A stretch of 64,000 nucleotides of DNA from an uncultured cyanobacterium (GCA_963703315.1 OY969811.1:3904001-3968000), one strand, 5' to 3'. Counted from the stretch's first letter, positions 1,377-20,918 are shown. Translations and numbers: made by a program. Notes: generated by a model not told the origin, from the letters alone.

Positions 1377-4300
1377 ATGATTCAGGTCGAACAGTCGATC
1401 AGGCATTTGGAAGATGGACAGTCTCTCAATAGGCGATCGCTAGATGCTTTAATTAGAGCGATCAATCTATTTCAGGGATCTTTTTCGCTGATCATTATCA
1501 ACTGTAATTACCGCAGTCTGCGCCAAAAGCTACTGACTGCCATAGCATCACAAACAGGAATGCTATGTCGCGAAATCTGGTGGCGGGAATCCCACGAGAC
1601 TCTGTATGACAAACTGCAAAATTTTTGGCGAGATGGGCATCTGGAAAATATTCCTGCCCTGATGTGCTTAGGCTTAGAGCAAACTAGAGCCGAGGATTTA
1701 GCAAATTTATTTGTCGAAGCGAATCTATTTCGCGATCGCCTCAAGCAAAAGATCAACTGTCCCTTAGTGCTGTGGCTAGATGATCGCGCTCTGCAACAAT
1801 TCTGGATTACGGCTCCTGAGCTAGCAAATTTAGCGGCTCCCCCGATCAAATTTGGATTGACATCGGTTGAGTTAGCCAATGAAGTTGATCAGCAAGTAGA
1901 GCGATTATTAGAAATTGTCAAAGATCCGCAAGTTCCCTTGTTTTGGCAAGATACTAAAATTGATGCTGACCGTGATGTTTTTTCCTATAGTGAGATGGAG
2001 ATCGCTCGCCGAGAACTGCGACTAGCTCAAGAGGCTTTACATTCACCGATTTCTCTAGAACTAGAAGCAAAGTTAGACTTCTTAGTCGGAAGATTATTGT
2101 GGCGATCGCCTCATATCACGCTCAATGAAGTATATGAAGAATCTCATGGGTCAGTGCATAGCGTATCGCAAATCTATTACCAGTGCAGTTTCGACTATTG
2201 GCAACGTGTTAATAAACCAATTGAGAGGGGTATCGTTTTATTTTATCTGGGGAATTTGTGGTGGCATAACTCCTTTGTCAATGGGCGACAGGCTCAAACC
2301 TCTTGGTTGAAGGCAAAACAATTTTTTGAAGATGCGATCGCCGCTTTTCAAACAGCGCAGCGCAGTGACTTAATTGCAAAATATGGTCGAGCTTATAGCG
2401 GTGTTCTTGAACAACTCCAAAATTGGCAAGAACTAGAGCAATGGATTTTTGAATTACTGCCATTACATCAGCACATACCCCTCGAACTAGCTCAGGATTA
2501 CGGATATTTAGCCAAGATTGCCGTCGAAAGAGGCGATTGGCTCAATGTTAAACAATATTCATTGGATGCACTAAAAACTCTAGAGCAGATCCCCACTTTT
2601 GATGACGATCAGCTTACTTACAATTGGTTGCGGTTACGTCATATTCAACTCGGTCAATATCAACTGTTATTGACTCAGAGCTATCTTCAACTTCAGGAGA
2701 TTGGACTAGCTTCTAATCTAATTGAATCAACGATCGCTAACTTTAATCTGAATTACGAACCCAAACTCTACATTCGCTTTTTGGATACTTTCCATGATAT
2801 TGCCTTTACCCAAGGTCGCTATCTTGAAGCTTTCCAAACTCGCCAAAAACAGCGATCGCTAGAGCAGAAATATGGACTAAGAGCGTTTATCGGCGCGGGA
2901 ACGCTGCAACCCAAAAAACTATCGCCTAATGCCAGTATTGCGGAATTAGATGCTAGTAAATTTGATATAAACTCTGGCGAAATCGCGGCTTCTGGTAGAA
3001 ATCAAGATGTGGAGCGTCTGGTGAAACGGATTCTCTCGGTGGAAAATCAACTCACGGTCATTCATGGAGAATCAGGTGTTGGCAAAAGCTCCCTTGTCAA
3101 TGCGGGATTAATTCCTGCCCTCTTGCAGCGATCGCTCACGGGACAAGAATTGCTGCCCATCAAGATTCATATCTATACCAATTGGATCAATGCTATTTCT
3201 GCTGCCATTTATGAAATGTATGACCTTAGTGATCAGACACCAATCGCAAGAAGAGGCTCTTTATCTAGTCATGAATTTGGTAACCAATTAGGCGATCGCC
3301 TTGCAAATAGTGAGCAGGATGCCAAAAATTTACTGCGTAAGCTGAGAGAACTAGCATTTCATGGTACACAAATTGTTTTAGTCTTTGATCAATTTGAAGA
3401 ATTCTTTTCTACCTGTACTCAACCCCAAGAAAGAGCAGTTTTTAGCGAATTTTGGCAAAATTGCCTCAAGATTCCGCTTCTCAAGTTAGTCATTTCCATC
3501 CGTGAAGATTACCTACATTTACTGCTAGAACTAGACTCTAAGAATACCGAAATCGATATTTTAAGTCGTGACTTGCGCTATGCCCTCGGCAATCTCTCCC
3601 CCGCCGATGCCAAATCCCTGATTGAAAATCTCACTGAACAGGCTAACTTTTTGATCGAACCACTCTTAGTGAATGAACTAGTCAGAGATCTAGCAGGCGA
3701 TCGCGGTTCAGTACGTCCCATTGAACTACAACTAGTTGGCTCACAAATCCAAGATCGGAATATTACGACGCTCTCTGCCTATCACGAAGCAGGAGGAAAA
3801 CAACGCATTGTCGAACAATCAGTGGAAGAGGTTGTGCAAGCCTGTGGTAATGCGGCTTTTATTGCTCAACAGGTGTTAATCCTCCTGACCGATGAGCAAG
3901 GCAAACGTCCATTGCGGACTTACAACGAATTGAGAATAGGGATTCTGCCCTACTCTAGTAATACCCTTGATCTCGACCTTGTATTAGAAATTTTAATCGG
4001 ATCAGGACTAGTTTTCCAATTGCCAGAATTACCCAGTAATCGCTATCAACTGGTGCATGACTATCTAGTTCCATTTATTCGGAATAATCAAGAAGCAGGT
4101 TTGCTAGATGAATTACGCAAAGTTAGGTCTTCAGCACAACGCAGTCAAACCAACCTCAATAGACTAACTAGAGTTGCTTTTATAGGGACTGTGTTGGGGT
4201 TATTCATGATGGCAGGTTTGGCTTTCCAAGCCAATCGTCAACGTCAGTTAGCTGAGTTTGGTGAAATCGAAGCCTTGAATTCTTCGGCAAATTCGAGTTT

Positions 4301-6374
4301 TCTGCTCAATCGGCAATTGGAAGCGTTAACTACATCTGTGCAATCTGCAAAGAAATTAAACGATACCGATGAAGGAACCGATAAAACTAGGATTAAGAAG
4401 TTAATCTTTGAAAATCTGCAAACAATCGTTTACAACATCCGTGAGCGCTATCGATTTTATTCGATCAAAATGGACTCACCATTTTATGCAGCCAAATTTA
4501 GTCCTGATGGCAATACTCTGGCGTTTGGTAGCTTTGATGGTGGAGTTTATCTATATAAAAGTGATGGTCAGTTGATTGCGCGTTTAGTTGGTTTGCAAGC
4601 AAGAGAAATTCGTGGTTTAAGTTTTAGTCCTGATGGTAAGAGAATTGCATCAGCAGGGCAAGGCAAAAGTGTCAGAATTTGGAATGTTGAGACTGGTAAA
4701 CTGATTGCTAAATTCTATGCTCATCAAGATGATATCTTTCGGGTGCATTTTCATCCTGATGGCAAAAGATTGCTGACGGGTAGTAAAGATGGCACTGCCA
4801 AAGTTTGGGACAGCGATCGCGGTATTGACATCCTGACCATCAATCCCAAAAACGTCGATGGTAGTTCTCCCCAAAAGGAATCGGGAGCGATTCAGGATAC
4901 GAGTTTTAGTCCTGACGGTAAGTTAATTGTAACGGCTAAAAATAACATCATTTCTCTATGGGATTTGCAAGGTAATTTACTAGCTCAGGCGATCGCCCAT
5001 GAAAAAGAGATTTACAGTGTCAAGTTCCATCCTAACAGCAAGCAATTGTTATCATCGGGGCGCGATGAAACTGTGAAACTGTGGCAAATCAATGGACAAG
5101 TTAGCGAACAAGTAGATCAACAGAAGCTTCAAATTCAATTAATACGCACATTTAAGGGCAATGCCACCGATGTTTTAAGCTTAAACTTTAGTGCTGATGG
5201 TAGTCATATTGCTTTTGGCTCTCAAGATAATTCGATCCAGATTCTCAATGCTGATGGGGTAACAGAAATGAAACTAGGCGGACATACGGATGGAATTTTT
5301 GATGTTAACTTCAGCCCGAATGGTCGATATCTGCTATCGGCAAGCAAAGATCGCACAGTCCGACTCTGGGATTTCAAAGCGACATTAATCGATACACTCT
5401 ATGGTCATGTCAGCAGCATTTGGTCAGTGAGCTTTCGCCCCGATGGTCGAGTCTTCGCGTCAGGCAGTGTCGATAAAACTGTGCGCCTTTGGAATGCCGA
5501 TGGAACCTTTAGACAAGAACTAAAAGGTCATGAGGATACGGTCTATGGTGTTAGTTTTAGTGCTGATGGCAAGAAACTAATCACCGCCAGTAATGATCAG
5601 ACCGTCAGAATTTGGGATAGCGATACAGGCAAGCTACTGCATATCCTCAATATTCATGGTGCAGAGTTGATCTATGCCGCCTTGAGTCCCGATCAAAAGA
5701 TCTTAGCGACTCTAGGCTGGGATAACAAAATTAAGCTATGGCAATGGGACAATACCGATAAACCGAAGTTGTTACATACATTAGAAGGTCATACAAAAAC
5801 GGTGTGGGCGATCGCCTTTAGTCCTGATAGTCAATCTCTAGCCTCGACTAGTAATGATCAAACTGTAAGAATTTGGAATGTGAACAATGGTCAAAATCTG
5901 CATACGATGGAAGCGCATACTAATGGTGGGCTGGCTGTTGCCTACAGTCCAGACGGTAAGCAGATTGGCTCGGCTGGTAAAGATGGCAAATTGAAACTAT
6001 GGAATGCTCAAACAGGCGCTCTCGAACAGGTGATTTCGGTAACGGCTGATTCTTGGATCTATGGCATGAACTTTAGTCCAGATGGCAAGGTGATCGCGAC
6101 TGCTAACGCTGATAAAACGGTCAAAATGATGGATCGCGCTAGTGGTGAATTACTCAAAACCTTATCTGGACATACTGCCGAAGCCTATGCTGTCAGCTAT
6201 AGTCCCGATGGCAAAACTATTGTTTCAGCGAGTCGAGACAATACGCTCAAATTATGGAATGCGGAGACCTTGCATTTTAATGAACTCGTTCAACGGGGTT
6301 GCAGTTTGCTAGACAACTATCTGGAATACACGCCAACATTAACTCCAGAACAAAAACAAATTTGCAAAAATTAA
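1377..6374 (+). CDS. STAND-type (nSTAND1-like) NTPase with helical/TPR-like N-terminus, one predicted TM helix and about 14 C-terminal WD40 repeats
   Basis: Walker A GESGVGKS, Walker B LVFDQFEE, IREDYL and RYQLVHDYL motifs; hydrophobic VAFIGTVLGLFMMAGLAF; repeated GH...FSPDG...W[DN] units. Confidence 0.9.
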   Translation: MIQVEQSIRHLEDGQSLNRRSLDALIRAINLFQGSFSLIIINCNYRSLRQKLLTAIASQTGMLCREIWWRESHETLYDKLQNFWRDGHLENIPALMCLGLEQTRAEDLANLFVEANLFRDRLKQKINCPLVLWLDDRALQQFWITAPELANLAAPPIKFGLTSVELANEVDQQVERLLEIVKDPQVPLFWQDTKIDADRDVFSYSEMEIARRELRLAQEALHSPISLELEAKLDFLVGRLLWRSPHITLNEVYEESHGSVHSVSQIYYQCSFDYWQRVNKPIERGIVLFYLGNLWWHNSFVNGRQAQTSWLKAKQFFEDAIAAFQTAQRSDLIAKYGRAYSGVLEQLQNWQELEQWIFELLPLHQHIPLELAQDYGYLAKIAVERGDWLNVKQYSLDALKTLEQIPTFDDDQLTYNWLRLRHIQLGQYQLLLTQSYLQLQEIGLASNLIESTIANFNLNYEPKLYIRFLDTFHDIAFTQGRYLEAFQTRQKQRSLEQKYGLRAFIGAGTLQPKKLSPNASIAELDASKFDINSGEIAASGRNQDVERLVKRILSVENQLTVIHGESGVGKSSLVNAGLIPALLQRSLTGQELLPIKIHIYTNWINAISAAIYEMYDLSDQTPIARRGSLSSHEFGNQLGDRLANSEQDAKNLLRKLRELAFHGTQIVLVFDQFEEFFSTCTQPQERAVFSEFWQNCLKIPLLKLVISIREDYLHLLLELDSKNTEIDILSRDLRYALGNLSPADAKSLIENLTEQANFLIEPLLVNELVRDLAGDRGSVRPIELQLVGSQIQDRNITTLSAYHEAGGKQRIVEQSVEEVVQACGNAAFIAQQVLILLTDEQGKRPLRTYNELRIGILPYSSNTLDLDLVLEILIGSGLVFQLPELPSNRYQLVHDYLVPFIRNNQEAGLLDELRKVRSSAQRSQTNLNRLTRVAFIGTVLGLFMMAGLAFQANRQRQLAEFGEIEALNSSANSSFLLNRQLEALTTSVQSAKKLNDTDEGTDKTRIKKLIFENLQTIVYNIRERYRFYSIKMDSPFYAAKFSPDGNTLAFGSFDGGVYLYKSDGQLIARLVGLQAREIRGLSFSPDGKRIASAGQGKSVRIWNVETGKLIAKFYAHQDDIFRVHFHPDGKRLLTGSKDGTAKVWDSDRGIDILTINPKNVDGSSPQKESGAIQDTSFSPDGKLIVTAKNNIISLWDLQGNLLAQAIAHEKEIYSVKFHPNSKQLLSSGRDETVKLWQINGQVSEQVDQQKLQIQLIRTFKGNATDVLSLNFSADGSHIAFGSQDNSIQILNADGVTEMKLGGHTDGIFDVNFSPNGRYLLSASKDRTVRLWDFKATLIDTLYGHVSSIWSVSFRPDGRVFASGSVDKTVRLWNADGTFRQELKGHEDTVYGVSFSADGKKLITASNDQTVRIWDSDTGKLLHILNIHGAELIYAALSPDQKILATLGWDNKIKLWQWDNTDKPKLLHTLEGHTKTVWAIAFSPDSQSLASTSNDQTVRIWNVNNGQNLHTMEAHTNGGLAVAYSPDGKQIGSAGKDGKLKLWNAQTGALEQVISVTADSWIYGMNFSPDGKVIATANADKTVKMMDRASGELLKTLSGHTAEAYAVSYSPDGKTIVSASRDNTLKLWNAETLHFNELVQRGCSLLDNYLEYTPTLTPEQKQICKN

Positions 6375-7540: not shown

Positions 7541-8602
<1,062 letters not shown>

Positions 8603-8683
8603 TACCAATTCACAGAAGTGTTGACACACTTTTGTGAATTAGTGTTAGCCAAGCAAGTCAAGTAGCTAAGCGCAATTAAATGA

Positions 8684-9247
8684 TTAGGGGCAACCTGATT
8701 CAAGTTGAGGATTTTTGGCGATCGCCCGATCCCATGATGATTTGCGTTCTCGTTTGTAGATTTCTAATGCTTCATCAGTAGCTGACATTTTGCGATTATT
8801 CTTTTTGTAGTAGTCACGAGCCGCGATCGCGCCTACCAAATTAGCTTCCGAACCAGCGATCGCGCATTGTCTTACCCGCAGGTTCTGCTCTACTGTAAGT
8901 CTTGGTTTGCGCCAAACTTTTGAAGCAGCAAGGGCTTTTTGAAACTGCTCGACTGCATCGTTAAACAGCCCCATTTGGAGTGCTTTGTCTCCATCAATCC
9001 AGTAGGTCATGATTGCATATCCGTAGGGACTCGCCTCAAGCATTTTGCGTAGCTGTTCTGGAGCTAATCCTGAACCTTGCTGTTTCGCTTTTTCTGGGGT
9101 TACTGGTTCTGCTTTTGATTCAACTGTTGTTTTAGCGATCGCCCCAGAAAGTTGGTTGGTCAGAGTCGATGCTTGGGTTTGTCCACAGGCAATTAGTGAA
9201 CAGCTAAGGGCAAGGAAACCGAAGAGTTTGGTTTTTGAGAAGGTCAT
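8684..9247 (-). CDS. lipoprotein D of the array: shared leader plus helical (TPR-like) C-terminal domain
   Basis: Signal peptide with lipobox LIAC-GQ; leader homologous to three neighbours. Confidence 0.8.
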   Translation of the reverse strand: MTFSKTKLFGFLALSCSLIACGQTQASTLTNQLSGAIAKTTVESKAEPVTPEKAKQQGSGLAPEQLRKMLEASPYGYAIMTYWIDGDKALQMGLFNDAVEQFQKALAASKVWRKPRLTVEQNLRVRQCAIAGSEANLVGAIAARDYYKKNNRKMSATDEALEIYKRERKSSWDRAIAKNPQLESGCP

Positions 9248-9268
9248 ATTGATTGATGTGATGTTAAT

Positions 9269-9313
9269 TTAGGGCAAAAATTCTAGGGGCTGAACAATTT
9301 TTATAAGCTCATT
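9269..9313 (-). pseudogene. relic of the 3' end of gene 12343-12951
   Basis: Translates NELIKIVQPLEFLP* versus NEFTKIVQSLEFLR* in the intact gene; no start codon. Confidence 0.75.
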
Positions 9314-9326
9314 TGTTTTTGGTTCC

Positions 9327-10295
9327 TTACCAACCTTCAACGACTTCCCGTAGTAACTCTTTTTCTCCTTGGGTGACAGTCAGAAAATTGCCTGTGGGGG
9401 TTTGTGCCAAGGTATAGGTCACATCACCGTTTACTGCCATGATCAAGGTCGGGGAAGCTTGAGTCAAGGGTAAACGAATGGATTTTGTTGGATCTGCTTT
9501 CTCTGTGCCTACATAGTATTCTGGAGTAGTTACTCCACAAATATTGATAACGTAGTTTTCCGTTGCCATCTTAGCTAGAGATTTTTCTTCACCTTGACAA
9601 GCTGACTTGGCTTTTCTGGGGGGAGGAGTGAGACGAAATTCCGCCCCTTGATATTTTCGATATTCCTTTGCAAATAAATAAGTGCCAGATAGATCGGCGC
9701 TAGGTGCAAGGTCAACCTTCTGTCCATAGCCTTTGTCTTCAAACTTTACTAACATAGGGACAGCATCCCTTGTATAGACAATCAAGTCATTCCAACCATT
9801 GCTAGTATTACCTGAAACGATAATCGGTGGATGACTGGTGGGAATGCGACCTATGAGTTGGTACTGACCTCTCAATTGCTGGAAAATTAAGGTTGTACAA
9901 CCTCCAGTTCCACAAAAATAACTACCCATCAAATGAACAATAACTTCAGGTGATGCATCACCATTTAGATCAACTTTGGCATAGGTATAATCGTTGACAC
10001 TCTCACTACTGGGATAACCTTGCTTATCTTCCCATATAGCCATTTCTAAAGTTGGGTCTGGGGATTTCTCTGACTCGATCCAAGGGATTTGCGCGGTCTT
10101 GGATTTCGCCGATGATTGTGGTTCTGGTGATTTTGCAAGAGCTACTGGGTTTGCGGCTGGTTGGGATGCAGTGGTTGTTTGCGCGATCGCATTGGGTGTC
10201 GCATTAGGTGCATTTCCGACTGGAGCTTGTCCACAGGCAATTAGTGAGTAACTGAAAGCTAGTAAACCGAATAGCTTAATTTTTGAGAAGATCAT
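9327..10295 (-). CDS. lipoprotein C of the array: shared leader plus a DLNGD...CGTGGC domain and a second small beta-rich domain
   Basis: Lipobox LIAC-GQ, Pro/Ala/Thr linker, DLNGDASPEVIV and FCGTGGCT motifs. Confidence 0.82.
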   Translation of the reverse strand: MIFSKIKLFGLLAFSYSLIACGQAPVGNAPNATPNAIAQTTTASQPAANPVALAKSPEPQSSAKSKTAQIPWIESEKSPDPTLEMAIWEDKQGYPSSESVNDYTYAKVDLNGDASPEVIVHLMGSYFCGTGGCTTLIFQQLRGQYQLIGRIPTSHPPIIVSGNTSNGWNDLIVYTRDAVPMLVKFEDKGYGQKVDLAPSADLSGTYLFAKEYRKYQGAEFRLTPPPRKAKSACQGEEKSLAKMATENYVINICGVTTPEYYVGTEKADPTKSIRLPLTQASPTLIMAVNGDVTYTLAQTPTGNFLTVTQGEKELLREVVEGW

Positions 10296-10338
10296 ATTTT
10301 TAATAGGTTATGTTTTATAGCTTGCTCTGATGGATAAA

Positions 10339-10440
10339 TCACTCAAACTTAGAGAGAATATCTGCACCGCGTTCTTTGGCAAGTTTTTCGAGGCGATCGC
10401 GTTTTTCCTCAAAAAAAGTAGTTCGGATAGAGCGATCGCG
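10339..10440 (-). pseudogene. relic of the 3' end of gene 11061-11609, bounded by a HIP1 site
   Basis: Translates RSIRTTFFEEKRDRLEKLAKERGADILSKFE* versus RSIRTTFTKAERDRLENLAKERGADILSKFK*; in-frame stop upstream and no start codon. Confidence 0.88.
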
Positions 10441-10478
10441 AGGTAATTGTAAATCTTTTTAGGTTTTTCGCCTGAAAA

Positions 10479-11018
10479 TCACTTCGATGCTCCACAAACA
10501 GCACGTAGCACAGTTGACTCACCTTCTTCAGCGCCATATCTAGCAATCGCAGGAATGATTTTTCCATCGATTGAGGATTCACCACAGTCTGCCGTGCGCC
10601 ACGGACTGTAGTAATCCTCTCCTCGGCTGTACTCAGCCCTAGTACGAAAGCGCCAACGATTGCTACCTAAGTCTTGCTTTTCGTGTATGTAAATTTTGTA
10701 CATAATGCCTTGTCTCATTCCAGAGTAGATAAACTCTGTGGCTTGTTGTGCTACAGGTGCGTTTGTTGAAGAATCCTGAGATTGGGCGATCGCGTTTTTA
10801 ACTTCAGTAGATGCTATAGCCGATGGTTGGGGTTCTGGTGATTTTTCGGCAACTACTGGTTTTTCGGTTGGTTGGGGTGCAGTGGTTGTTTGCGCGATCG
10901 CACTGGATGTTGCCTTGGGCGTTGCATTAGATGCAGTCGAAACTGGAGTTTGTCCACAAGCAATTAGCGAGTAACTGAGGGCTAGTAAACCGAATAGCTT
11001 GATTTTTGAGAAGATCAT
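10479..11018 (-). CDS. lipoprotein B of the array: shared leader plus unrelated small C-terminal domain
   Basis: MIFSKIKLFGLLALSYSLIACGQ leader, nearly identical to that of 9327-10295. Confidence 0.82.
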   Translation of the reverse strand: MIFSKIKLFGLLALSYSLIACGQTPVSTASNATPKATSSAIAQTTTAPQPTEKPVVAEKSPEPQPSAIASTEVKNAIAQSQDSSTNAPVAQQATEFIYSGMRQGIMYKIYIHEKQDLGSNRWRFRTRAEYSRGEDYYSPWRTADCGESSIDGKIIPAIARYGAEEGESTVLRAVCGASK

Positions 11019-11060
11019 GTTTTTATGGGTTATGTTTTGTAGATTGCTCTGATGGATAAC

Positions 11061-11609
11061 TCACTTAAACTTAGAGAGAATATCTGCACCGCGTTCTTTG
11101 GCAAGGTTTTCGAGGCGATCGCGCTCTGCTTTTGTAAAGGTAGTTCGGATAGAGCGAGCTTGATCACGCATTAGCTCCGCTTGCAACTTGCCACTTCGAT
11201 CAAACATGAATAGCTTTCCATCGTGGGAAAAAGCGATCGCAGCAACTTTGCCATTGAAGTGATAATTATAGGTAATACCACCGCCACCTTCAAGATTGCC
11301 TGCTGAAGCAGAAGAGACAAATGTAGCTGGATTTACTCGACCACCGCCTATACGGGTGGCACAAACGGTGAACCGATTCGATCTCTGCGTAATCGCTTTG
11401 CGATAACCATCGCAGGGTCGCTGTTCGATTTCTGCATAGGCTTCATACAGCGTTTTGGCAAGATTGGAATCTGTGGAGCGCTGTGCCACAATTACTCTTA
11501 TTGAAGACATCTGAGATTGTGCGATCGCTGTTTCGACAGAGGCTTGGGCAGCAAAGGGAACTGCGATCGCAGTGAGTAAGGGAATTGCAAAAAGTTGTGA
11601 GATTTTCAT
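11061..11609 (-). CDS. secreted hypothetical protein (array gene Y)
   Basis: Sec-type signal peptide ending AQA; 182 aa. Confidence 0.78.
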   Translation of the reverse strand: MKISQLFAIPLLTAIAVPFAAQASVETAIAQSQMSSIRVIVAQRSTDSNLAKTLYEAYAEIEQRPCDGYRKAITQRSNRFTVCATRIGGGRVNPATFVSSASAGNLEGGGGITYNYHFNGKVAAIAFSHDGKLFMFDRSGKLQAELMRDQARSIRTTFTKAERDRLENLAKERGADILSKFK

Positions 11610-11645
11610 TGTTTAGTTTGAATAAAGGTATAGAAAATATCTAAG

Positions 11646-11726
11646 AACCCCCTTTAATTCCCCCTTGCAAAGGGGGAAAATAAGAATTCTTGTTCTCCTT
11701 TGCAAGGGGAGGGTTAGGGAGGGGTT
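11646..11726. repeat. cyanobacterial CCCCCTT..AAGGGGG paired-hairpin (REP-like) repeat
   Basis: tcccccttgcaaaggggga and ctcctttgcaaggggagggttagggaggggtt in inverted arrangement. Confidence 0.75.
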
Positions 11727-11757
11727 ATTGACAAGATTTTAGAAATTAGCCAATTTG

Positions 11758-12336
11758 TTAGAGATCGCAAGCTTGCTGTCCCCAAGTTAGGGGTGGTCTA
11801 GTGCGAGTACGAGCATCAAGGTCGGGAGCGCAGGTAAATTGCTTGATGGAGCCATCAGGAAAAAGTCCGATGGTTACTGATTCACCCGTGCGATCGCGTC
11901 CAAAAGTAACCGCAGCCACACTTTCACAATTTTGGATAATCTGCTTCGCAATCTCAGTCCTCACTTCATCGCCAGACTTCCAAAAATCAGCAACCCCGCT
12001 ACCACTGATGGTAAGTGTATATCTGCGATTGAGATTGGCTGAGCGATCGGGATAAGGCACTGATAAACGAGAAAAACGACTGTTATTGGTTACTTTCACA
12101 TCAGGAATAGTTTCCAACACATCCTTAACATTTGCGACCACCTGCTCACATACCGTTCCATTTTTGACTTTCGCTTCAGGTGATGGCGTATTAGTTGCGG
12201 TGGATGTTTGGGCGATCGCATTGGATGTGACACTAGGCATCACATTAGGCGCAGTCAAGGCTTGAGATTGTCCACAGGCAATCAGTGAGCAGCTAAGAGA
12301 GAGAAAACTGAAAAGTTTGATTTTAGAGAGTTGCAT
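11758..12336 (-). CDS. lipoprotein A of the array: shared leader plus unrelated C-terminal domain with 4 Cys
   Basis: MQLSKIKLFSFLSLSCSLIACGQ leader. Confidence 0.82.
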   Translation of the reverse strand: MQLSKIKLFSFLSLSCSLIACGQSQALTAPNVMPSVTSNAIAQTSTATNTPSPEAKVKNGTVCEQVVANVKDVLETIPDVKVTNNSRFSRLSVPYPDRSANLNRRYTLTISGSGVADFWKSGDEVRTEIAKQIIQNCESVAAVTFGRDRTGESVTIGLFPDGSIKQFTCAPDLDARTRTRPPLTWGQQACDL

Positions 12337-12342
12337 ATTGAT

Positions 12343-12951
12343 TTAGCGCAAAAATTCTAGAGATTGGACAATTTTGGTAAACTCATTGGGAGTCATGTGG
12401 GCTGTGTCAGTGCAAATAATCGCAGCATTGATCCAATTGGCGGCTTTGCTATCGATAGTTCTCACGGAGTAGAAAGGCGATTTGCCTGCGGGAAAAGTCC
12501 ATAGTTGTTGTGGAGTCTTGGCGATCGCATCTGTCATCGGAGCGCCATTACCGTTGCCAATATTGACATCCACCTCGCCCAAAAGCTTAGTATTGACAGT
12601 GCGGGTGTAGCGCCCACTTGGACCACCAAGCCCGCCGCCAGTCGCCTCAACCGCAAAGCAATGATTTTGACGATTGCGATATAGCACCGTATAGTCAGGA
12701 CCAAAGCGGCAGACTCCGTTAGCATCAATCCTGTCTCCCTGACGACAAGGTTTAGTTTCGACTGCCGCCATCCAAAATCCTTGAGGCACATATTTGGGAA
12801 GCGCAACTTTGATGCCAAGGGACTTCAGTTTTGTGCTAAAGCTAGAGTTGATCAAACTATGACCATTATTAGTTTGGGCAGAGACGGGAGCCGCAAAAGC
12901 AGCAGTTAGAGTCAACAGGGAAAGTAGAGATAGGCAGGTAGTAAATTTCAT
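12343..12951 (-). CDS. secreted hypothetical protein (array gene X)
   Basis: ATG at 12951 gives signal peptide MKFTT...VSA-Q; LPKYVPQGF motif. Confidence 0.78.
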   Translation of the reverse strand: MKFTTCLSLLSLLTLTAAFAAPVSAQTNNGHSLINSSFSTKLKSLGIKVALPKYVPQGFWMAAVETKPCRQGDRIDANGVCRFGPDYTVLYRNRQNHCFAVEATGGGLGGPSGRYTRTVNTKLLGEVDVNIGNGNGAPMTDAIAKTPQQLWTFPAGKSPFYSVRTIDSKAANWINAAIICTDTAHMTPNEFTKIVQSLEFLR

Positions 12952-13055
12952 AGGTAAGTTGGTGATTGTGTTTATTAAGAAAGCGTTCAAGAATTACTCG
13001 CTGTGATCAAAAAATTAGCTGAATCCAGACCAGTTGCTGAGTCCATCTCAGCCTC

Positions 13056-13469
13056 CTATTTATCAAAGGGTCTTTTAGAACTAGAGCATGTTTGATCAAG
13101 TAAATACGACGCAATCCAGCCTCTAGTTTGACTAGGCATATACTCTACATAGTCCCAATTCACTCCTTCATTATCACTTTGACGCACGATGGGTGAATAC
13201 CCGCTAATGCTGTAATACAGTTGGGCTACTCGTTGTCCCACTAAGACATAGCCAACGATCTCAGACTCAACTCCAGGGGCAGAGCGCATATTCACCCGTG
13301 ATCCCTTTTCTTGACCAAGAATATCAGCAAGGCAACGTCCTCGAAATGCTGGGGGTGTGTTTTGGGCATCGGCGATCGCAGTGAATTGAGGTGCGAGAGT
13401 GATGAGAGGGGCAATAATTGCCACCAAAACTTTAGTTAATTTCATAGATTGGAATTTAGCTTCAGGCAT
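13056..13469 (-). CDS. secreted bacterial SH3-like domain protein
   Basis: Signal peptide; VNMRSAPG...W..V......GWIAS pattern. Confidence 0.78.
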   Translation of the reverse strand: MPEAKFQSMKLTKVLVAIIAPLITLAPQFTAIADAQNTPPAFRGRCLADILGQEKGSRVNMRSAPGVESEIVGYVLVGQRVAQLYYSISGYSPIVRQSDNEGVNWDYVEYMPSQTRGWIASYLLDQTCSSSKRPFDK

Positions 13470-13719
13470 TTCTTATGATTAAGATATCTCGACAATATCT
13501 TTGGTTCCAACTGATTTCGTCTCCTAGCGAGTAGGCGGGGAGGCTTCATTTTTGGAAATGCTTTACAGGTCTCTGTTTTAGCCACATTATCCTAAACGAA
13601 ATACAAGTAAAAAATGTAAGATCTTGATGGATTTTAGATTTTTTTAATTTTCGTTTTTGATATGGGCTGTAAGGCAGAGAGATAAGCCTCACTAAAGCGA
13701 AACCACCCTGCTTTACGTT

Positions 13720-14202
13720 CTAAAACGTTTTCCATTCTTCGCGATTGAGAAAGAAGCCGTTGCCTTTGGGGTTGGTGCAGGTCAGCCCGTTAGTGCGCGA
13801 CTTGCAAACAAAGCCGCCTCTGCTCCAAGTCTTGCCATAGGCTAGGGTCTTGTAATTGGGTGAATAGGCGCTATCCCCCGCACAAAGTACGCTCGGCTTA
13901 CCGACTTTGGGTAAAGATAAGCCACTGCCCCAATCCAAATTGCAGGATGCTGGCTGCGGTGGCATCGGGTTCAATTGGCTGACAATTTCACAACGCAGGC
14001 GGTCGCCATAGATCACGCAGTAAATATTTTTACTAGGCATGATGAAGCCATTTCGACTAAAAAAATCTTCCGATGATTGCGCGATCGCAGGTGCATTTAC
14101 AGGTGCATTTTGTGGCAAAGCTTCAGCTTTTAAACTGGTGAAGGGAAATAGAGAAGTGGCGATCGCTAAAACTGTCAAACAGGAAACACGAAATTTTGGC
14201 AT
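13720..14202 (-). CDS. secreted Cys-rich protein (DUF6636-like)
   Basis: Signal peptide; F.MPSKNIYC...C..DWG...CAGD...L.YG.TW..GGF.C.S...GLTC.N..G.GFFL. Confidence 0.75.
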   Translation of the reverse strand: MPKFRVSCLTVLAIATSLFPFTSLKAEALPQNAPVNAPAIAQSSEDFFSRNGFIMPSKNIYCVIYGDRLRCEIVSQLNPMPPQPASCNLDWGSGLSLPKVGKPSVLCAGDSAYSPNYKTLAYGKTWSRGGFVCKSRTNGLTCTNPKGNGFFLNREEWKTF

Positions 14203-14289: not shown

Positions 14290-14344
14290 ACCAAAACCCG
14301 TAAAATTGCGCCCCCGTAGGGGGCGCAATTTTACGGGTTTTGGT
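14290..14344. repeat. perfect hairpin, 26-bp arms, C-GTA-G loop
   Basis: accaaaacccgtaaaattgcgccccc-gta-gggggcgcaattttacgggttttggt. Confidence 0.9.
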
Positions 14345-14374: not shown

Positions 14375-16276
14375 CTAGATATTGATACTTTGAGGAATGC
14401 GTGATGGTCTGAGGTAACTGTAATCGGCAATCCTTGTTTCATTGCGCGACTTGATGGTTTTCTCGATCGCCTTCAACTCATCCTGAAAACTCCGTAAGGG
14501 CTTCTCAATGCGATCATCAGTGAAATAGTCATCATTATAATCTCCTAATGTCGTGTAATAGACTGAACCGAGAATATAAGTCAGTTTCAATTGTCCCTTT
14601 GCCTGATCAATCGGTGGCAGTAATGCAAAGAAATCCTCTTCAGTTGCGCCTGTGGTCTGAGTCGGTGCAGGGGTATAGCCTGCTAAGGGAATTGCAGGAG
14701 TATACACAATTAAATCTCCCTGTGGGAAGTTCACGGCGGCGTGTTGAGCGCTGCCTGTGAAGATCACCGCTGTGACAGCCTCAGCTAAATAAGCTAAGGT
14801 GCGAATCTGTCCATTTTCGCCAAAGCTAGTCACACGACCACCATCATCAGCGATGATTTCCTTTGCCCATGCTTGCAGTTCAGTGTCCTTCTCTATATCT
14901 GCATCACTGGCATAATAAACTGATAGATAACTCTTGACCCAAGTAGCGATCGCTTCCCAAACTAATAGTGCATCATCACGATAGGGATAGTCAGGGAGTA
15001 AGTTGGGATTGTCAACACCGCGCTTCCTGAGAGCTTTAGGTAATACGGCATCCTCAAATTTATAGGATTTAACTCCATTCACAGAGACAGCGCGAGAACT
15101 GGCGATCGTTCCTGCCAGCAAGCCATCGACACCACCACCAGCACTCACTAATTTAGACTGTGCGGCATCATTGATTGCTAAAGTTCCTTGGAAATGCGGT
15201 TTGAGCAAGATATATAGAGGGTGATTGCTGGCAAGTTGCCGATTGGTGGCGATCACAAAGGGTTCCACAAATAAATGGGTTCTACCCAAATGGCTAAGTA
15301 GTTGATGATGATTCGCATCGGCAATCTGGACAACGGTTTTGGCAATCAACCAGTTCGGCTCATCACCAGTTTGGAGTAAAAAGATAGGATGAGTCTTGGG
15401 ATCTTGTCCTAATTGAATAGCGATCGGAATCAAGCTCTTTTCCCCTTGAGGAATGGCAAATAGAGCTAAAGGAGCATTAATGTACTTCTGTTCTCCTGTG
15501 GGAAAAGTACCACCAACGATCGCCTCTAGTTCTGCATAGTCTGCTAAATATAAACGTCCTTCTGCTCCTGCTGTAGCTAAGGAATCATTGGGTAAAACCT
15601 GTTGAAACTGCTCTTCAGTTAATGGGAATCTGGCATCAAGAGCGGCAATCCGTTGAATTACTAAAGGATTAAACCCAGCGACACGCAATCTCGCAAATTC
15701 AGTGTTACTAATATAGTTTTGGCTGATCGCAGGGAGAGGTATAATCCAAAATAGATTGTTATATTCTTCAATATTCACTCCTTCTAAATTAGTAGATGGA
15801 GTTTCTAAAACCGATGGTAAATCTTCTAATAGCTCTAGTAATGCCGAATCAGAATGAGCCGTACTTGCGGCGAGTAATCGTTTAGAAAAGTCCTGTTGCT
15901 TGGCTTTAGACTTTTGTTTGCCATCTTCTAATAGCAATGGGTTAGCTCGCTCATTCAGCAAAACCTTGACGGCGGCTTTCCCAACTAACAATCCCCAAGA
16001 TAATGAGAATCTCTCGTTGGTGGGAACTGTCTCTACTAATGGTAGTGAATCGATGTAGGTATAGTTATATTGATAAAGATTTCTAGCATTGTTCAGAAAT
16101 CTCTGACGTTGATTTATTTCAGGATCATTCTGAGGCAGAAGTGGATAACCACTGGCAGGCGATCGCCTTAATATCCAAGCAGCCAAATTTTCCAACTTTG
16201 CCGCGATAAACTTTAATACTTTGGCAACACCACCCAAAAGAGCAAAGATCATGGATGTACCTTGAAATTTATACAC
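14375..16276 (-). CDS. lox: lipoxygenase (non-heme iron)
   Basis: W..AK, HQLLSHLGRTH, QHAAVNF and C-terminal IPQSINI iron-ligand motifs. Confidence 0.95.
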   Translation of the reverse strand: MYKFQGTSMIFALLGGVAKVLKFIAAKLENLAAWILRRSPASGYPLLPQNDPEINQRQRFLNNARNLYQYNYTYIDSLPLVETVPTNERFSLSWGLLVGKAAVKVLLNERANPLLLEDGKQKSKAKQQDFSKRLLAASTAHSDSALLELLEDLPSVLETPSTNLEGVNIEEYNNLFWIIPLPAISQNYISNTEFARLRVAGFNPLVIQRIAALDARFPLTEEQFQQVLPNDSLATAGAEGRLYLADYAELEAIVGGTFPTGEQKYINAPLALFAIPQGEKSLIPIAIQLGQDPKTHPIFLLQTGDEPNWLIAKTVVQIADANHHQLLSHLGRTHLFVEPFVIATNRQLASNHPLYILLKPHFQGTLAINDAAQSKLVSAGGGVDGLLAGTIASSRAVSVNGVKSYKFEDAVLPKALRKRGVDNPNLLPDYPYRDDALLVWEAIATWVKSYLSVYYASDADIEKDTELQAWAKEIIADDGGRVTSFGENGQIRTLAYLAEAVTAVIFTGSAQHAAVNFPQGDLIVYTPAIPLAGYTPAPTQTTGATEEDFFALLPPIDQAKGQLKLTYILGSVYYTTLGDYNDDYFTDDRIEKPLRSFQDELKAIEKTIKSRNETRIADYSYLRPSRIPQSINI

Positions 16277-16287
16277 CCAATAATATC

Positions 16288-16432
16288 GTAATTTTTAAGT
16301 TGGCGTAGCAAACTTAAAAATTACAAACAATTTACAGCCTAAGTAATTAAGTTGCGGCACGAAGCGCCGCAACTTACAGCCCAAGAAACATGTAAAAGCG
16401 TTGCTTCGCAACGCTTTTACATGTTTCTTGGG
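16288..16432. repeat. cluster of three triloop hairpins (16288-16324, 16348-16376, 16380-16432)
   Basis: Loops GTA, GAA and TTC, each closed by GC..GC; the third has perfect 25-bp arms. Confidence 0.85.
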
Positions 16433-16441
16433 GTTGGTGTA

Positions 16442-17137
16442 TTACTTGACTAGTCCTGCTCGGAGGGCGCGTACTGCTGCTTGAGTGCGGTCATCGGCAC
16501 ATAACTTATTCAAGATATTTCGTACATGGGTTTTGACTGTACCAACCGTAATGTAGAGACGCTCAGCGATTTCTGCATTGCTATTGCCATTGACGATCTC
16601 TGATAGTACCTCTAGCTCGCGCTCAGTCAGTGGTGTAGCTTGGAGGACTTGTTTGTAATCAGCCTCAGCCGCATCAATTTCTACGGTAGCTTCGCGGCGG
16701 CGCACTTGCTGTAACACGATATTGGCGATCGCAGGGTCAATCCATGAGTTACCCTCAGCCGTTAATTTCAAGGCTTGTACCAGATTCTCAGAGCTAATGT
16801 CTTTGATGCAGTAGGAGTCTGCCCCTGCGGCAAAGGCAGCTAAAACTGTCTCTTGGCTATCTGTCAAAGTCAGAATTAAAACTTTAGTCGCTCTACCCGT
16901 TTCGGTAGCGGTTGCTTTAATTTGGCGTGTTACCTCTACGCCATCAATATCAGGTAAACCCAAGTCAACGATCGCTACGTCAGGTTGTTGGCTATTTACT
17001 AGGGCAATACCTTCTGCACCCGTTGCGGCTTCACCAACAAAAACAAGCTCTCCCTGCTGTTGTAAAGCGATTTTCATGCCCATGCGGGTCAGGTCATGGT
17101 CTTCAATTAGGACAACACGAATCGAACTCATAAGCAT
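16442..17137 (-). CDS. NarL/LuxR-family response regulator
   Basis: REC domain (IEDH, VDLGLP) and LTERELEVL...TVKTHVRNIL HTH. Confidence 0.95.
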   Translation of the reverse strand: MLMSSIRVVLIEDHDLTRMGMKIALQQQGELVFVGEAATGAEGIALVNSQQPDVAIVDLGLPDIDGVEVTRQIKATATETGRATKVLILTLTDSQETVLAAFAAGADSYCIKDISSENLVQALKLTAEGNSWIDPAIANIVLQQVRRREATVEIDAAEADYKQVLQATPLTERELEVLSEIVNGNSNAEIAERLYITVGTVKTHVRNILNKLCADDRTQAAVRALRAGLVK

Positions 17138-17221
17138 TTTTGCAGATTATGCAACCGTCATTATTGTTACCAGAATCGCACAGAAGAGGCAATAAAACCA
17201 GATTGCGCCGCCACTCTTTGG

Positions 17222-17863
17222 CTACTTTTGGATAGCTTGACCTAATCGTTTCAGGATTTGGAGTACTTGCCCCAGTTCATGCTGTCTAGGAAATAGAGAG
17301 AAAGTCCGCGAAACGTCATATTGAGGCTGGCTATTGTGGGTCATTTTCAAGAAGACAAATTCATCACCATTCGTGGCTAAACCAAAGGATGGTTTGTCTT
17401 TTTGTCCATTGGGACTGGCTAGCATATATGCCAATAATTGCGGAATGGCAGCTAACACAGAGATACTAGTTCGTTTTGACTCAACTACTAAAATCCATAG
17501 GTTTTGTTGAATAACCAGCATATCGATAAAACCTCGCAGGATTTCCTCTGTATCATCCAGTTCTAGCGTGATTCCATAGGGTGAATGCATTCGATAGGGA
17601 GCATCTAGAAAACCTGCTAGTTCTAATAGAGGCGATACGACGACTACTTGGATTGTTCCTTCTAAGAGCAGTCCATCTAATCTTTGGTAGTCATAACGCT
17701 GTTTTAGTCGTTTGATACCTGCTTGTTCTGTCTCAGTTAATGCTGGTAAGTCTTCTTGCCATTCCCTAAAAAAGCGATCGCTATCAGCTTGTCGCAAATT
17801 AAAGCGATCGCTTAAATCATTCAGACTATGAATTGCATCGGTAATTCCTATCGTGGCAACCAT
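17222..17863 (-). CDS. PD-(D/E)XK nuclease-fold protein (HsdR N-terminal-like, cyanobacterial family)
   Basis: G.IDMLV...ILVVESK...QLLAYM...GLATNG.EF.F.K pattern. Confidence 0.78.
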   Translation of the reverse strand: MVATIGITDAIHSLNDLSDRFNLRQADSDRFFREWQEDLPALTETEQAGIKRLKQRYDYQRLDGLLLEGTIQVVVVSPLLELAGFLDAPYRMHSPYGITLELDDTEEILRGFIDMLVIQQNLWILVVESKRTSISVLAAIPQLLAYMLASPNGQKDKPSFGLATNGDEFVFLKMTHNSQPQYDVSRTFSLFPRQHELGQVLQILKRLGQAIQK

Positions 17864-19435
17864 TTAGTTTTTACCAACAACAAACGTTGACTCTAAGTTC
17901 TGATTATAGGTTGCGCCACTCTTTGTGGTTTGGGTGATGGCGATTTGGTAAGAGGCATTGTTGTTTTCGCGTAGCCAAGGAGAGCAGTAACGACCTATCG
18001 GTAAAGTGTAAGTATTGCCGTTAATAATTGCGCCATCGCTAGGTGCAGATTTGGGCGGAATTTTAAAAGTAATACTGCGCCGTTTTTGATAGTCAGAGGC
18101 GACTACACCTGTTGCGGATTCTTTGCTCAAACATTGCACTTGGATTTCGGTGTTTTTGAGCAGTTCACGTACATTGCCGCGATCGCTGAGAACTAATTGA
18201 TTTTCAGTACTTACCCCTGAGATTTTTTGTAATTGGAAAGCACTGACGCGATCGGGATGAAATCCGCCTGTAATTTTCACTACTTGGAGGTTTTCTGGTG
18301 CAGTGGCGGGAATGACTTGATATTCCAGTGTTCCTGCTAGTTGATATTGGATTTCAGCAGACTCATTACGAACATTCACGGTTGCGCCAACTTCTACGCG
18401 ATCGACTCCCAAAGCTGTTGGTGTTTCGGCGGCAGCCCAATCAAATCGATAAAATAATCTTGCTGTATCTTTTAAAAGAGTATAGCGATCCGATGTATTG
18501 GAACTAGGGCGCAGTAAGCTAGACAAACCTGTGCGATCGACCCAAATATTTTTAATCAGTCCTACTTTTTTACCGATCGCCTGTGCCAATGGTGCGCGAT
18601 CGCTTGTAATTTCCGCAGGAATATCTAGACGCGGTACAAGGGTAATCTTGCCATAGTTGCCTGTCTCGCCATTGCGCCCATTGTTGCTGGTCTCGCCATC
18701 ACGACCACTTTGACAGGAATAAACATCGGTGCGAGAAACCCCTTTATAAGTACGTCGATATAGCCAATCATCTTGCCGATATTCCGAAGATTTTGAAGAG
18801 GATTGCGAAAAATCAAAACCATCCGATGAACGCCTACAAAGTCGAGTTTCTTGAGACTCATAGGACCAAGGCGCTTTAGCATCTTTAAAGGGTCGTCGCT
18901 CAATATCCCAAGAACAATATCTAACTCGCCATTCTGGTTCTTGGCATTCACAGCCTTTACCACCAACAGCACCACGCCCATTTCTGCCGCCGCGTCCTCC
19001 TGCATTCCGAATTTCGATCTGCCGCAGATCCGCAATATTTGTATAAAAAATAATCGCATTGCCGCCATTGCCACCACGTCCACCATTGCCGCCATCACCA
19101 CCACGTCCACCCGATGCCCCAATCAGTGAGTATTCAGGACGATAGGGTTGGGCGCAACTACTAGCCGATCGCCCTGCGGTTCCATCTTCGCCGTCATCAC
19201 CATTTGTGCCAGTGAGGTCATAAGTAGCGGGTTTCCCATCACCAACAATTTTGATGTCTTGACCATCCCTGCCCGATCGCCCATCGCGACCCCGATCGCC
19301 CTCTTCTCCAGATCGTCCAAAAGTATTTTGGGCGATCGCTACTGAGTCAAATGATGGTCTGACTAAAGGTAAAGTCAGGATGGTGATTGGTAAAGCGGAG
19401 ATCAAAAATTTAAGCGATCGGGTTTTCCACATCAT
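17864..19435 (-). CDS. secreted collagen-like (Gly-X-Y) protein
   Basis: Signal peptide; several G-X-Y blocks (GEEGDRGRDGRSGRDG, GGRGGDGGNGGRGGNG) separated by Cys-containing segments. Confidence 0.82.
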   Translation of the reverse strand: MMWKTRSLKFLISALPITILTLPLVRPSFDSVAIAQNTFGRSGEEGDRGRDGRSGRDGQDIKIVGDGKPATYDLTGTNGDDGEDGTAGRSASSCAQPYRPEYSLIGASGGRGGDGGNGGRGGNGGNAIIFYTNIADLRQIEIRNAGGRGGRNGRGAVGGKGCECQEPEWRVRYCSWDIERRPFKDAKAPWSYESQETRLCRRSSDGFDFSQSSSKSSEYRQDDWLYRRTYKGVSRTDVYSCQSGRDGETSNNGRNGETGNYGKITLVPRLDIPAEITSDRAPLAQAIGKKVGLIKNIWVDRTGLSSLLRPSSNTSDRYTLLKDTARLFYRFDWAAAETPTALGVDRVEVGATVNVRNESAEIQYQLAGTLEYQVIPATAPENLQVVKITGGFHPDRVSAFQLQKISGVSTENQLVLSDRGNVRELLKNTEIQVQCLSKESATGVVASDYQKRRSITFKIPPKSAPSDGAIINGNTYTLPIGRYCSPWLRENNNASYQIAITQTTKSGATYNQNLESTFVVGKN

Positions 19436-19520
19436 ACTAAAGCCTTTGAAAGCAATCTATTTTGTTGACATTATTATTACAAACTGAGTTCCAAAGTTAT
19501 AGCTAGATATAAACTCATAT

Positions 19521-19615
19521 TAAGTAGGTAGGCGTAATTAAACTTACAATGGGTTTCAGTCACCGCAATAGTTGGAGGCATAGCTATCTTATATTTAATT
19601 TATCCCACTTACTTA
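19521..19615. mobile_element. MITE-like element, TAAGTA...TACTTA end family
   Basis: taagtaggtaggcgtaattaaa ... tttaatttatcccacttactta; relatives at 59693-59796 and 62995-63099. Confidence 0.65.
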
Positions 19616-19649
19616 GAAAAATATTCCTGAAAATTTTTACTCCGCTAGT

Positions 19650-20729
19650 TTATTTACTTAGATCTTTTAATCCAGTAATTAATTTTACTAATGACTCAAT
19701 TACGCCTAATTTTAAAGTTACATCAAGGGAGACAAGAAGCCATGCAATAAAAATGTAAGGCAAATTTTTGTTGATTTCTGCATTAGGATTAGGGAGCTTT
19801 TCAGGAAATAAAATATAAAATGCCATTATCATAAGTGGCAAAGTAATGCCAATGAATCTTATTGCAATCTCCTGTATTTTCTGAAGACGAGTCTGTTTAA
19901 TGACTTCGGCGGTCATTTGAAAAAATTGCCATTCCCAAGAACCATATTCTTCCGTGAAATAATAGTAGGCAAGATTATAAAAATTTTCCCTTAAATTACT
20001 AAGGGTTGTTTGCCTCGGTGCAATTAACCATCTTCTTCTTTCAAGAATATAGTAAGCCATATTTTTAAAGTGCTGTTGAATCCATTCTTGACTGACTGAT
20101 TTTCCAATACTATAATGCCAAGGAATTAAAGTTGTTACTCTTGCTAAGTAGTTCATTCTAAAAAGAATCATACTTTTAACATCTCGTCTATAAGTTACAT
20201 CATCTCTTTTTAATTCAAGATTTAGGTTGATAATTTGTATAACACACAAGGTTTCAGGAATTAAGTATTCTATGATTCTAACTAACAGCCTAGAATATAT
20301 GATCTGTATTGTTATAAAAGAAATTCCATATATTGCGTATACAATAGGTAAAGAAAAAGAATTGTCAAAAAACTGTAAAGTAAAATAAATAAATAGATAA
20401 ATTCCAATAAAAAAAGGAATTGACCCTAATAAAAAATAAATGGTAAATCGCTTGCGATGTTCATCTGCAATTTGAGTATACTTCTCTTTTTTTAGTCCAA
20501 AAAAGTCGAGTGAAAAATCTTCTGCCAAATCAAAAGATGAATCAGTAATCAGTCCCTTTAAAAAAGATGAAATTATTTTTTTATGACCATCAGAGTTAAT
20601 TGTCATTGAGAAAGGAAATCCAACAACGTATCCTAGAAAATGTTTACTTAACCATAATATTTTTAATAATAGTTGAGGTCTATTATAAAGAAAATAGCCT
20701 TCAAGTTTCTTCTTCGCTTGATCATCCAT
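19650..20729 (-). CDS. AT-rich hypothetical multi-pass membrane protein
   Basis: 359-aa ORF with about 4 hydrophobic helices; visibly low GC. Confidence 0.7.
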   Translation of the reverse strand: MDDQAKKKLEGYFLYNRPQLLLKILWLSKHFLGYVVGFPFSMTINSDGHKKIISSFLKGLITDSSFDLAEDFSLDFFGLKKEKYTQIADEHRKRFTIYFLLGSIPFFIGIYLFIYFTLQFFDNSFSLPIVYAIYGISFITIQIIYSRLLVRIIEYLIPETLCVIQIINLNLELKRDDVTYRRDVKSMILFRMNYLARVTTLIPWHYSIGKSVSQEWIQQHFKNMAYYILERRRWLIAPRQTTLSNLRENFYNLAYYYFTEEYGSWEWQFFQMTAEVIKQTRLQKIQEIAIRFIGITLPLMIMAFYILFPEKLPNPNAEINKNLPYIFIAWLLVSLDVTLKLGVIESLVKLITGLKDLSK

Positions 20730-20918
20730 TTTTATTCAGATAAAGTTATCAAAAAATTATAGAGTATTTATCTTTTTTGGCGTTGTACATCTTCATAATG
20801 CTATTCAAGTATTGTGTCTTTGGCTCCTTACCTAGTAAGACCCATTAACGTTTGGTCATTATGAATATCGGCAACGCCCAAAATTCGGACAACCTAGCCT
20901 AAATTTAAAATAAAAAAT

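Follow-up and report, generated by a model that had tools for sequence, protein, structure and literature searches.

A shuffled, horizontally traded array of exported domains with re-paired leaders in the cyanobacterial genus Pseudanabaena

How does a cyanobacterium come to hold a row of exported proteins, four of which begin with one lipoprotein leader and continue with unrelated domains, and what might such a row do? The question is raised by positions 8684–14202 of a 64,000-nt stretch (the window) from an uncultured cyanobacterium (GCA_963703315.1, OY969811.1:3904001-3968000; source genome of 4.57 Mb, 42% GC and 1.8 HIP1 octamers per kb). An earlier note on this DNA had described eight co-oriented genes for signal-peptide proteins, and had proposed a polymorphic display locus in which a fixed export module captures interchangeable domains. 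The eight genes are there: co-oriented minus-strand open reading frames between gap1 and a lipoxygenase gene (lox), transcribed in the order G, F, E, D, X, C, B, A, with a spacer of 6 nt between E and D. Judged by simple rules and without a signal-peptide predictor, all eight products appear to carry export signals: each is basic at the N-terminus and has a hydrophobic stretch (Kyte-Doolittle mean over the best 11 residues 2.0–2.8), with no membrane helix further on. The lipobox LIAC, with Cys21, is present in A, B, C and D, whereas X, E, F and G have AxA sites. The layout is no assembly artefact, because the gap1–A and G–lox junctions are each bridged by contigs of a second study. We conclude that the array is real and lineage-specific, and that its exported domains are shuffled and traded horizontally; sequence comparison indicates that leaders and unrelated cargos have been re-paired at this polymorphic export locus between Pseudanabaena species.

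The shared leader lies on the minus strand in A (9107–9247, repeat D1), B (10108–10295, with stalk), C (10819–11018, with stalk) and D (12196–12336). These four match one another (tblastn E 1e-7 to 1e-22) and match nothing further in the 4.57-Mb genome by tblastn. The suggestion that they fall into two lineages held for B and C (24 of 26 identical over residues 1–26) but not for A and D, since A shares no more residues with D (20/26) than with C (20/26); A-type and D-type leaders formed separate groups in a weak tree from a short alignment (52 columns), and the feature that A and D do have in common is the tail of an E-type gene upstream.

What follows the leader differs from gene to gene. A (8684–9247) has a helical two-cysteine cargo with a weak TPR-like score (E 0.2), and its orthologues in five other loci give a ratio of non-synonymous to synonymous divergence (dN/dS) of 0.17–0.33. 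B (9327–10295) has a Pro/Thr/Ala stalk and two domains: B1, with DLNGD/CGTGGC motifs, predicted partial beta-propeller blades and the precomputed label PF27665, for which we located no name, and B2, a predicted eight-stranded beta-barrel. C (10479–11018) has a long stalk ending in a piece derived from the X leader (repeat D6) and then a small two-cysteine cargo, and D (11758–12336) has a four-cysteine cargo. The remaining genes have non-lipid leaders: X (11061–11609; leader of MKISQ type), whose cargo is represented by a homologue predicted to form a beta-meander with helical caps; E (12343–12951), with a four-cysteine cargo and a DUF4367-like lead only (score 0.89); F (13056–13445), with an SH3b-like domain (Pfam SH3_3, E 4e-5, below cut-off); and G (13720–14202), with the six-cysteine DUF6636 (PF20341, E 6e-15, over cut-off). 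G and F are thus the only two of the eight for which a Pfam family was found; A, B, C, X, D, E and a further cargo, H, gave nothing beyond weak scores in family scans. Profile–profile comparison of 11 cargo domains put no pair above 6.5% probability, so that the unrelatedness first read from the sequence stands: no homology between cargos, as simple divergence of paralogues would leave, could be detected. All 11 have an even number of cysteines.

Across relatives the array changes in content, order and place. A leader profile matched 15 of the 48 Pseudanabaena genomes, two of these matches being stubs and one cut by a contig end, and none of 23 genomes from 11 other genera of the family. The 16 arrays read from these 15 genomes (seven of them cut by contig ends) have 14 gene orders: three genomes share one order, all others differ, and the window's order is absent from the other arrays read. 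No gene is present in all 16. The same genes in the same order in all relatives, the pattern that the earlier note had set against its own proposal, is therefore not what is seen. Nor is the array tied to the gap1–lox interval, which that note had suggested comparing: the arrays have eight different downstream neighbours (gap1 and genes for an FAD-dependent oxidoreductase, MscS, ClpB, ChlH, a TPR protein, a Na/H exchanger and a DnaJ protein). The genus also has stand-alone genes for E, F, G, H and D, and within the class a profile of X+D matched in 52 of 251 genomes and one of H in 68 of 301; the array therefore draws on a pool of ordinary accessory exported domains. Whole B was not found in the 47 other genomes of the genus (three weak matches, 29–35%), and its closest homologues, which lie outside the array (68–72%), have another lipoprotein leader.

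The re-pairing is most direct in the catalogue of leaders and cargos. Among 44 proteins with the lipoprotein leader (two of them distant homologues) we counted ten architectures with seven first cargos (A, B1, C, D, E, G and X). Some leaders on E and C agree at all 43 of 43 positions and some on D and X at 42 of 43; overall, leaders with 41–43 of 43 identities carry C, D, E or X. Non-lipid leaders behave likewise: the X type heads X, H and X+D and, as a hybrid with the first residues of the lipoprotein leader, C; the G type heads G and leucine-rich repeat (LRR) proteins; an F/G hybrid heads A. Cargo C has a non-lipid hybrid leader in L031 and a leader of its own in P0267/P0268. Hybrid leaders occur at L031:8260, at L092:1111 and in P0003, where the first residues of the array's lipoprotein leader are joined to a foreign leader. 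Six of the seven cargos were found both with and without a lipid anchor. Cargos are also fused to one another (E+X, X+D, B1+B2, B1+F), at times in mid-domain (P0009, and P0108, which passes from D into the G tail). Of the module first proposed, then, the interchangeable domains survive and the single fixed leader does not, for there are at least six leader types, lipidated and not, and even hybridised.

The LRR proteins in the arrays are exported, internalin-like and variable in length (205–450 aa; L031:3922-5274, L039, L043, L075, L093); some have a G-type leader, and LRR is also found beside two D genes in another family (L146).

The duplicated unit is larger than the leader alone: it consists of an upstream gene tail, a spacer and a leader. 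A 340-nt copy, 84% identical to 10819–11157 and comprising X tail, spacer and leader/stalk, recurs before B, where it includes an orphan 3' tail of an X-type gene (10339–10440, minus strand). An orphan 3' tail of an E-type gene stands before A (9269–9313, minus strand; repeat D7, 81% identical to 12335–12387), its translation ending in NELIKIVQPLEFLP followed by a stop, and was left by partial duplication or recombination. Similar tail copies are present in L084, L088, L093 and L106. Upstream similarity of the leader copies stops at about −18 nt except where the tail of the upstream gene was duplicated along with them; promoter-like sites are at chance level (9 vs. 9.4), and no common promoter was found upstream of the leader copies. 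In relatives the gene directly after E is either D or A, and the window array therefore looks like a merger of two array types. Other rearrangement scars are a bare lipoprotein-leader stub in the spacer before E (L072:1580-1676) and a G tail before F (L088/L096).

Defining a junction as the point where the best-matching source switches, we examined 24, with overlaps of −5 to 34 nt; leaders, conserved tails and spacers all contain junctions, some of them thus within genes and some between. A near-identical contig (98–100% to the window) is without 1,014 nt between X and D, with four shared letters, ATTG, at the joint. Exchange between species is visible at silent sites: compared with genome G073, gene F has a single synonymous change in 66 sites (synonymous divergence, dS, 0.015) and D a dS of 0.19, while the adjacent E has 0.85 and the core genes for SPFH and a response regulator 1.57 and 1.87; the stretch of about 12950–13350, overlapping gene F, is 96–100% identical to that of a distant species. 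Against G002, C has a dS of 0.19 and core genes 0.83 and 1.28. With cargo dS so far below that of core genes, pieces of the array appear to move between distant species.

These observations suggest a route by which such arrays may grow. Conserved leaders, stalks and C-terminal tails would act as anchors, and the moving unit would be an upstream tail, a spacer and the downstream leader. Incoming DNA, probably taken up by natural transformation (the genome has a ComEC match over cut-off), would recombine at one anchor while its other end is joined at microhomology, a process called homology-facilitated illegitimate recombination. In this way cargos existing as stand-alone genes elsewhere in cyanobacteria could be captured, and a cargo could be switched between membrane-tethered and soluble forms. 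That ordinary homologous and short-homology recombination between species accounts for the shuffling is, in our judgement, very probable.

The earlier note had not recognised a described system here, but the organisation has published precedents. In Borrelia burgdorferi erp genes (OspE/OspF/Elp, with an 'upstream homology box'), according to PMC10016077, one conserved leader precedes ORF bodies of many independent origins, with frequent recombination and horizontal exchange; a conserved lipoprotein leader on bodies of independent origin, recombination and horizontal exchange are all found here. The erp genes, however, occupy an allelic locus carried by several cp32 prophages in a pathogen, with a shared promoter/operator and surface adhesins as products, whereas the present array is a tandem one on the chromosome of a free-living cyanobacterium, set among housekeeping genes and at sites that shift, with several lipid and non-lipid leaders swapped and with cargos fused in cis. 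No Erp match was obtained for the array proteins (nothing in PHROGs at E below 0.004, and Pfam gave no Erp family). The lpl/csa genes of Staphylococcus aureus (DUF576, TilA) evolve in units that span the 3' part of a gene, the spacer and the next 5' part (PMC2568036), change copy number by recombination (PMC7360770) and include one whose product, TilA, gives immunity to a secreted lipase toxin (PMC10730906). The 340-nt X-tail/spacer/leader copy and the E-tail/leader copy match that unit, the accordion behaviour is alike, and by analogy with TilA's neutralisation of a lipase toxin the role may possibly be alike too. However, the lpl genes all belong to a single paralogous family (DUF576), recombine at a conserved region in the middle and often lie beside the cognate toxin, while the cargos here are non-homologous, leaders and tails serve as anchors, and no adjacent toxin was seen. 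Heterogeneous polyimmunity loci are co-oriented, closely spaced rows of unrelated small genes without toxins that vary between relatives, usually one per genome and with fused forms, and the survey that defined them did not find extended ones in cyanobacteria (PMC3482391, section 39); horizontal acquisition is described for AID clusters (10.1101/471110). Our array resembles polyimmunity loci in layout, being co-oriented, with short spacers, toxin-free inside, variable between relatives and with fused forms, but differs from them in that no cargo matched a recognised immunity family, all are exported, and no recombinase is adjacent.

The dN/dS of the cargos (0.04–0.53 for A, C, D, E, G and X) lies below 1 but above that of gap1 (0.03–0.04), which argues that the cargos are kept by purifying selection yet evolve fast. 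AlphaFold models are confident for B (pLDDT 86) and for an X+D homologue (pLDDT 93), and these two proteins are predicted to have four different folds, for B1, B2, X and D. Predicted B1 resembles integrin or propeller blades (Z about 6). The modelled B2 barrel aligns with PliC (Z 7.3), the type VI secretion immunity protein BtaiB (Z 7.0), YdhA/MliC (Z 6.1) and Neisseria ACP (Z 5.8), but at Z values (5.8–7.3) below 8, with 2–7% identity to inhibitors of the MliC/PliC/ACP type, and as one of 11 cargos; the matches to 4mir (Z 7.3, rmsd 4.3, 82 aligned) and 2f09 (Z 6.1, rmsd 3.5, 75 aligned) are tied with those to unrelated barrels. The D homologue, compared like X by VIA-align, is predicted to be alpha/beta and KH-II-like or alpha-lytic-prodomain-like. 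Foldseek gave no match for B at E 0.001 or below, and no PDB sequence matched at E below 0.04. Atlas searches with E and X led to unnamed clusters only, a viral-contig scan with E to one weak fragment among 61 candidates, and C showed no relation to Adhesin_E in shallow alignments (hhalign 0.3%). The comparison with immunity and inhibitor folds suggested by the earlier note gave four different folds and, for B2, an ambiguous likeness to lysozyme-inhibitor and immunity barrels.

The function that we favour is a poly-immunity-like defence of the envelope: disulfide-bonded cargos might act in the periplasm or on the cell surface, binding lytic enzymes, toxins or phage proteins of foreign origin and neutralising them, and by re-pairing leaders and cargos the array would refresh a protective coat around the cell. 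We counted in favour of it the likeness of the predicted B2 barrel to PliC, BtaiB, MliC and ACP, the fusion of B1 to PF07007 (in 7 of 87 homologues) and PF03724 (in 8 of 87), which we take to be LprI and META, the SH3b partners (SH3b occurs alone or fused to D, H and B1), the variable LRR proteins, the occurrence of D genes in islands and the layout shared with polyimmunity loci (PMC3482391). Judged from sequences and predicted models, such a role comes close to being an even choice without quite reaching it, and the two parts together, a leader/cargo repertoire shuffled by recombination and serving envelope defence, make a reading that we favour tentatively and place a little lower still.

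Several results weigh against this combined reading. Searches of Pfam, NCBIfam, PHROGs, PADLOC and PDB sequences matched no cargo to a known family of immunity proteins or inhibitors. The loop SxSGxxY (SxSG), which is the signature of MliC, was not seen in the B2 alignment and Pfam gave no MliC match; the best structural matches of B2 are to unrelated enzyme domains, such as the PBP C-terminal domain 2qmi (Z 7.8); and the predicted X beta-meander (Z at most 6.3) and KH-II-like D (Z at most 5.8) are generic folds. Every fold match lies below Z 8, and the four different folds therefore come with no function assigned. No toxin gene was seen beside any array or stand-alone homologue locus read, and the stand-alone copies of E, H, G and F have ordinary genes as neighbours. 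The D genes in restriction-type (methylase/helicase) islands or mobile DNA amount to seven loci picked by eye from 32 and without a control. The dN/dS of F is 0.28–0.87, the upper value resting on few changes; the sole conspecific rearrangement, the X–D deletion fusion, is out of frame; and the single RNA run among the 22 runs listed has a share of 0.06. Several of the genomes, moreover, are metagenome bins, yet the mosaic, with F at dS 0.015 next to E at 0.85, is contained in a single contig.

A bolder version of the shuffled-defence reading is doubtful: a recombinase-free, genus-wide combinatorial library in which leaders are landing pads that capture pan-cyanobacterial inhibitor domains, convert them from tethered to soluble and back, join them to one another and pass them from species to species. 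If true, it would be the first extended exported poly-immunity locus in cyanobacteria, with about ten new inhibitor families (A, B1, B2, C, D, E, H, X and DUF6636).

The main rival keeps the same shuffling but makes the products variable surface adhesins or decoys, as in erp, that alter filament adhesion to surfaces and partners or recognition by phage or grazers and are not enzyme inhibitors. The long Pro/Thr/Ala stalks after the lipid anchor would suit it, as would the integrin- or propeller-like prediction for B1, the variable length of the LRR cargos, the fusion of X to Adhesin_E in P0217, the matching erp organisation, and the source of the four runs, from two studies, that hold at least 0.20 of the words searched (sediment, river and biofilm samples). 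But half of the array's genes in the window appear to be non-lipidated, and their products would be soluble, and SH3b, alone or fused to D, H or B1, points to the peptidoglycan layer. We consider this rival unlikely, if less so than those that follow.

A near-neutral gene accordion, in which dispensable exported genes cluster by chance and leaders drive recombination into combinations that are not selected, would explain the stubs, truncated genes, insertion-sequence (IS) disruption and out-of-frame deletion, the 33 of 48 genomes of the genus that have no leader match, and the stand-alone homologues that each cargo has elsewhere. It fits poorly with the purifying selection on cargos, with the many chimeras that are in frame and keep an export signal and a whole domain, with repeated interspecies replacement, and with the fact that the genes remain clustered after relocation to at least eight sites; we regard it as improbable.

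Integron cassette arrays, too, are variable rows of small genes, many of them exported, and a programmed cassette system, with an integron-like recombinase or the HIP1 octamer setting the exchange points, was considered. HIP1 is read in frame, as 'AIAQ/AIAK', within the four lipoprotein leaders and close to where X, F and G begin; its density in the window array (3.3 per kb) exceeds that of the genome, and it occurs at 4 of the 24 junctions (1.5 expected, P 0.05, the junctions not being independent). HIP1-driven shuffling was nonetheless rejected as the main mechanism, since 20 of 24 junctions are without HIP1 and all 20 array stretches together have 2.0 per kb against 1.8 for the genome. An integron was likewise rejected: the best integron-integrase score in the genome is 32 bits (TIGR02249, cut-off 265), a crude RYYYAAC...GTTRRRY pattern for attC-like sites matched in 0 of 93 intergenic gaps, no recombinase lies beside the arrays read, junctions fall inside genes as well, and the conspecific deletion is at ATTG. 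The cassette explanation is thus largely refuted and very improbable. An ordinary operon of subunits or helpers of one envelope pathway, its differences due to gene loss, would account for the co-orientation, the short spacers and the one order shared by three genomes, but is contradicted by the variable gene content and order and by cargos that swap leaders and fuse in many combinations, and is the least credible of all.

The array is a member of none of the erp, lpl and polyimmunity systems; it is a variant of the known shared-leader kind with an unusually complete leader-by-cargo pattern. Shared-leader shuffling has been described mainly from pathogens (erp, lpl), and here it occurs in bloom- and biofilm-forming free-living cyanobacteria, with the full leader-by-cargo pattern and with measurable exchange in species pairs whose core genes are nearly saturated with silent changes. 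The locus brings together about ten exported domains that are widespread in cyanobacteria and uncharacterised; if they are defensive, they would show how cyanobacteria guard the envelope against competitors, predators or phage. We found no publication on this locus, most subscription papers being outside the reach of our search.

The flanks of the window array record a rearrangement. On one side lies gap1 (glyceraldehyde-3-phosphate dehydrogenase; 7577–8602, plus strand; family scan), which is outside the system, and on the other lox (14375–16252, minus strand; family scan and comparison with relatives), which in relatives is unlinked to the array. Compared with G002, the block of collagen-like gene, response regulator and lox (window 14375–19435; L188, L190, L191) is inverted relative to gap1, and the array is located at the breakpoint of that inversion. 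In G002, G009 and G020 the gene after gap1 is the collagen-like one, and the gap1–lox interval as a variable slot was rejected because the arrays of these three relatives lie elsewhere. The collagen-like gene itself (window 17864–19435) encodes an exported 522-aa protein with Gly-rich collagen-like repeats and is conserved in the genus (72–77% DNA identity).

Three repeats accompany the array: a dispersed palindromic repeat at the gap1 end (8600–8641; 55 places in the genome), a perfect palindrome with 26-nt arms at the lox end (14290–14344; five places) and a dispersed hairpin repeat that is not array-specific (11641–11745; 15 places). The two flank repeats were rejected as mobile ends, since neither matches other array stretches, though those were cut close to the genes. 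Both types stand side by side at one genomic site.

Other loci gave further observations. A nucleotidyltransferase gene pair, with or without HEPN, lies ahead of several arrays (L033, L036, L105, L093, L189), and an IS630-type element interrupts the array of G002 (L031:5341-6494). Genes of the D family (L147, L149, L150, L152, L145, L148, L131), often with small exported genes, lie beside hsdM, SNF2/DUF1156, a DNA methylase/UvrD, an integrase or a terminase; in two restriction-type islands D is adjoined by an exported family with the motif LRxGMxYxxARxxL and no Pfam match (L147:5079-5453, L152:6622-7038). In other cyanobacteria (L178–L183) neighbouring H-domain genes, several fused to an SH3b-like domain, occur in clusters of exported proteins. 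The source genome has a distant F paralogue (33%) elsewhere (G000:C1:1732713-1733072). Within the window, GC content drops to 29% at 19500–21000, the remainder of the first 30 kb being at about 41–49%, and positions 1377–6374 encode a 1,665-aa protein in which a P-loop motif and many WD40-like repeats were recognised by reading the sequence and not by a scan.

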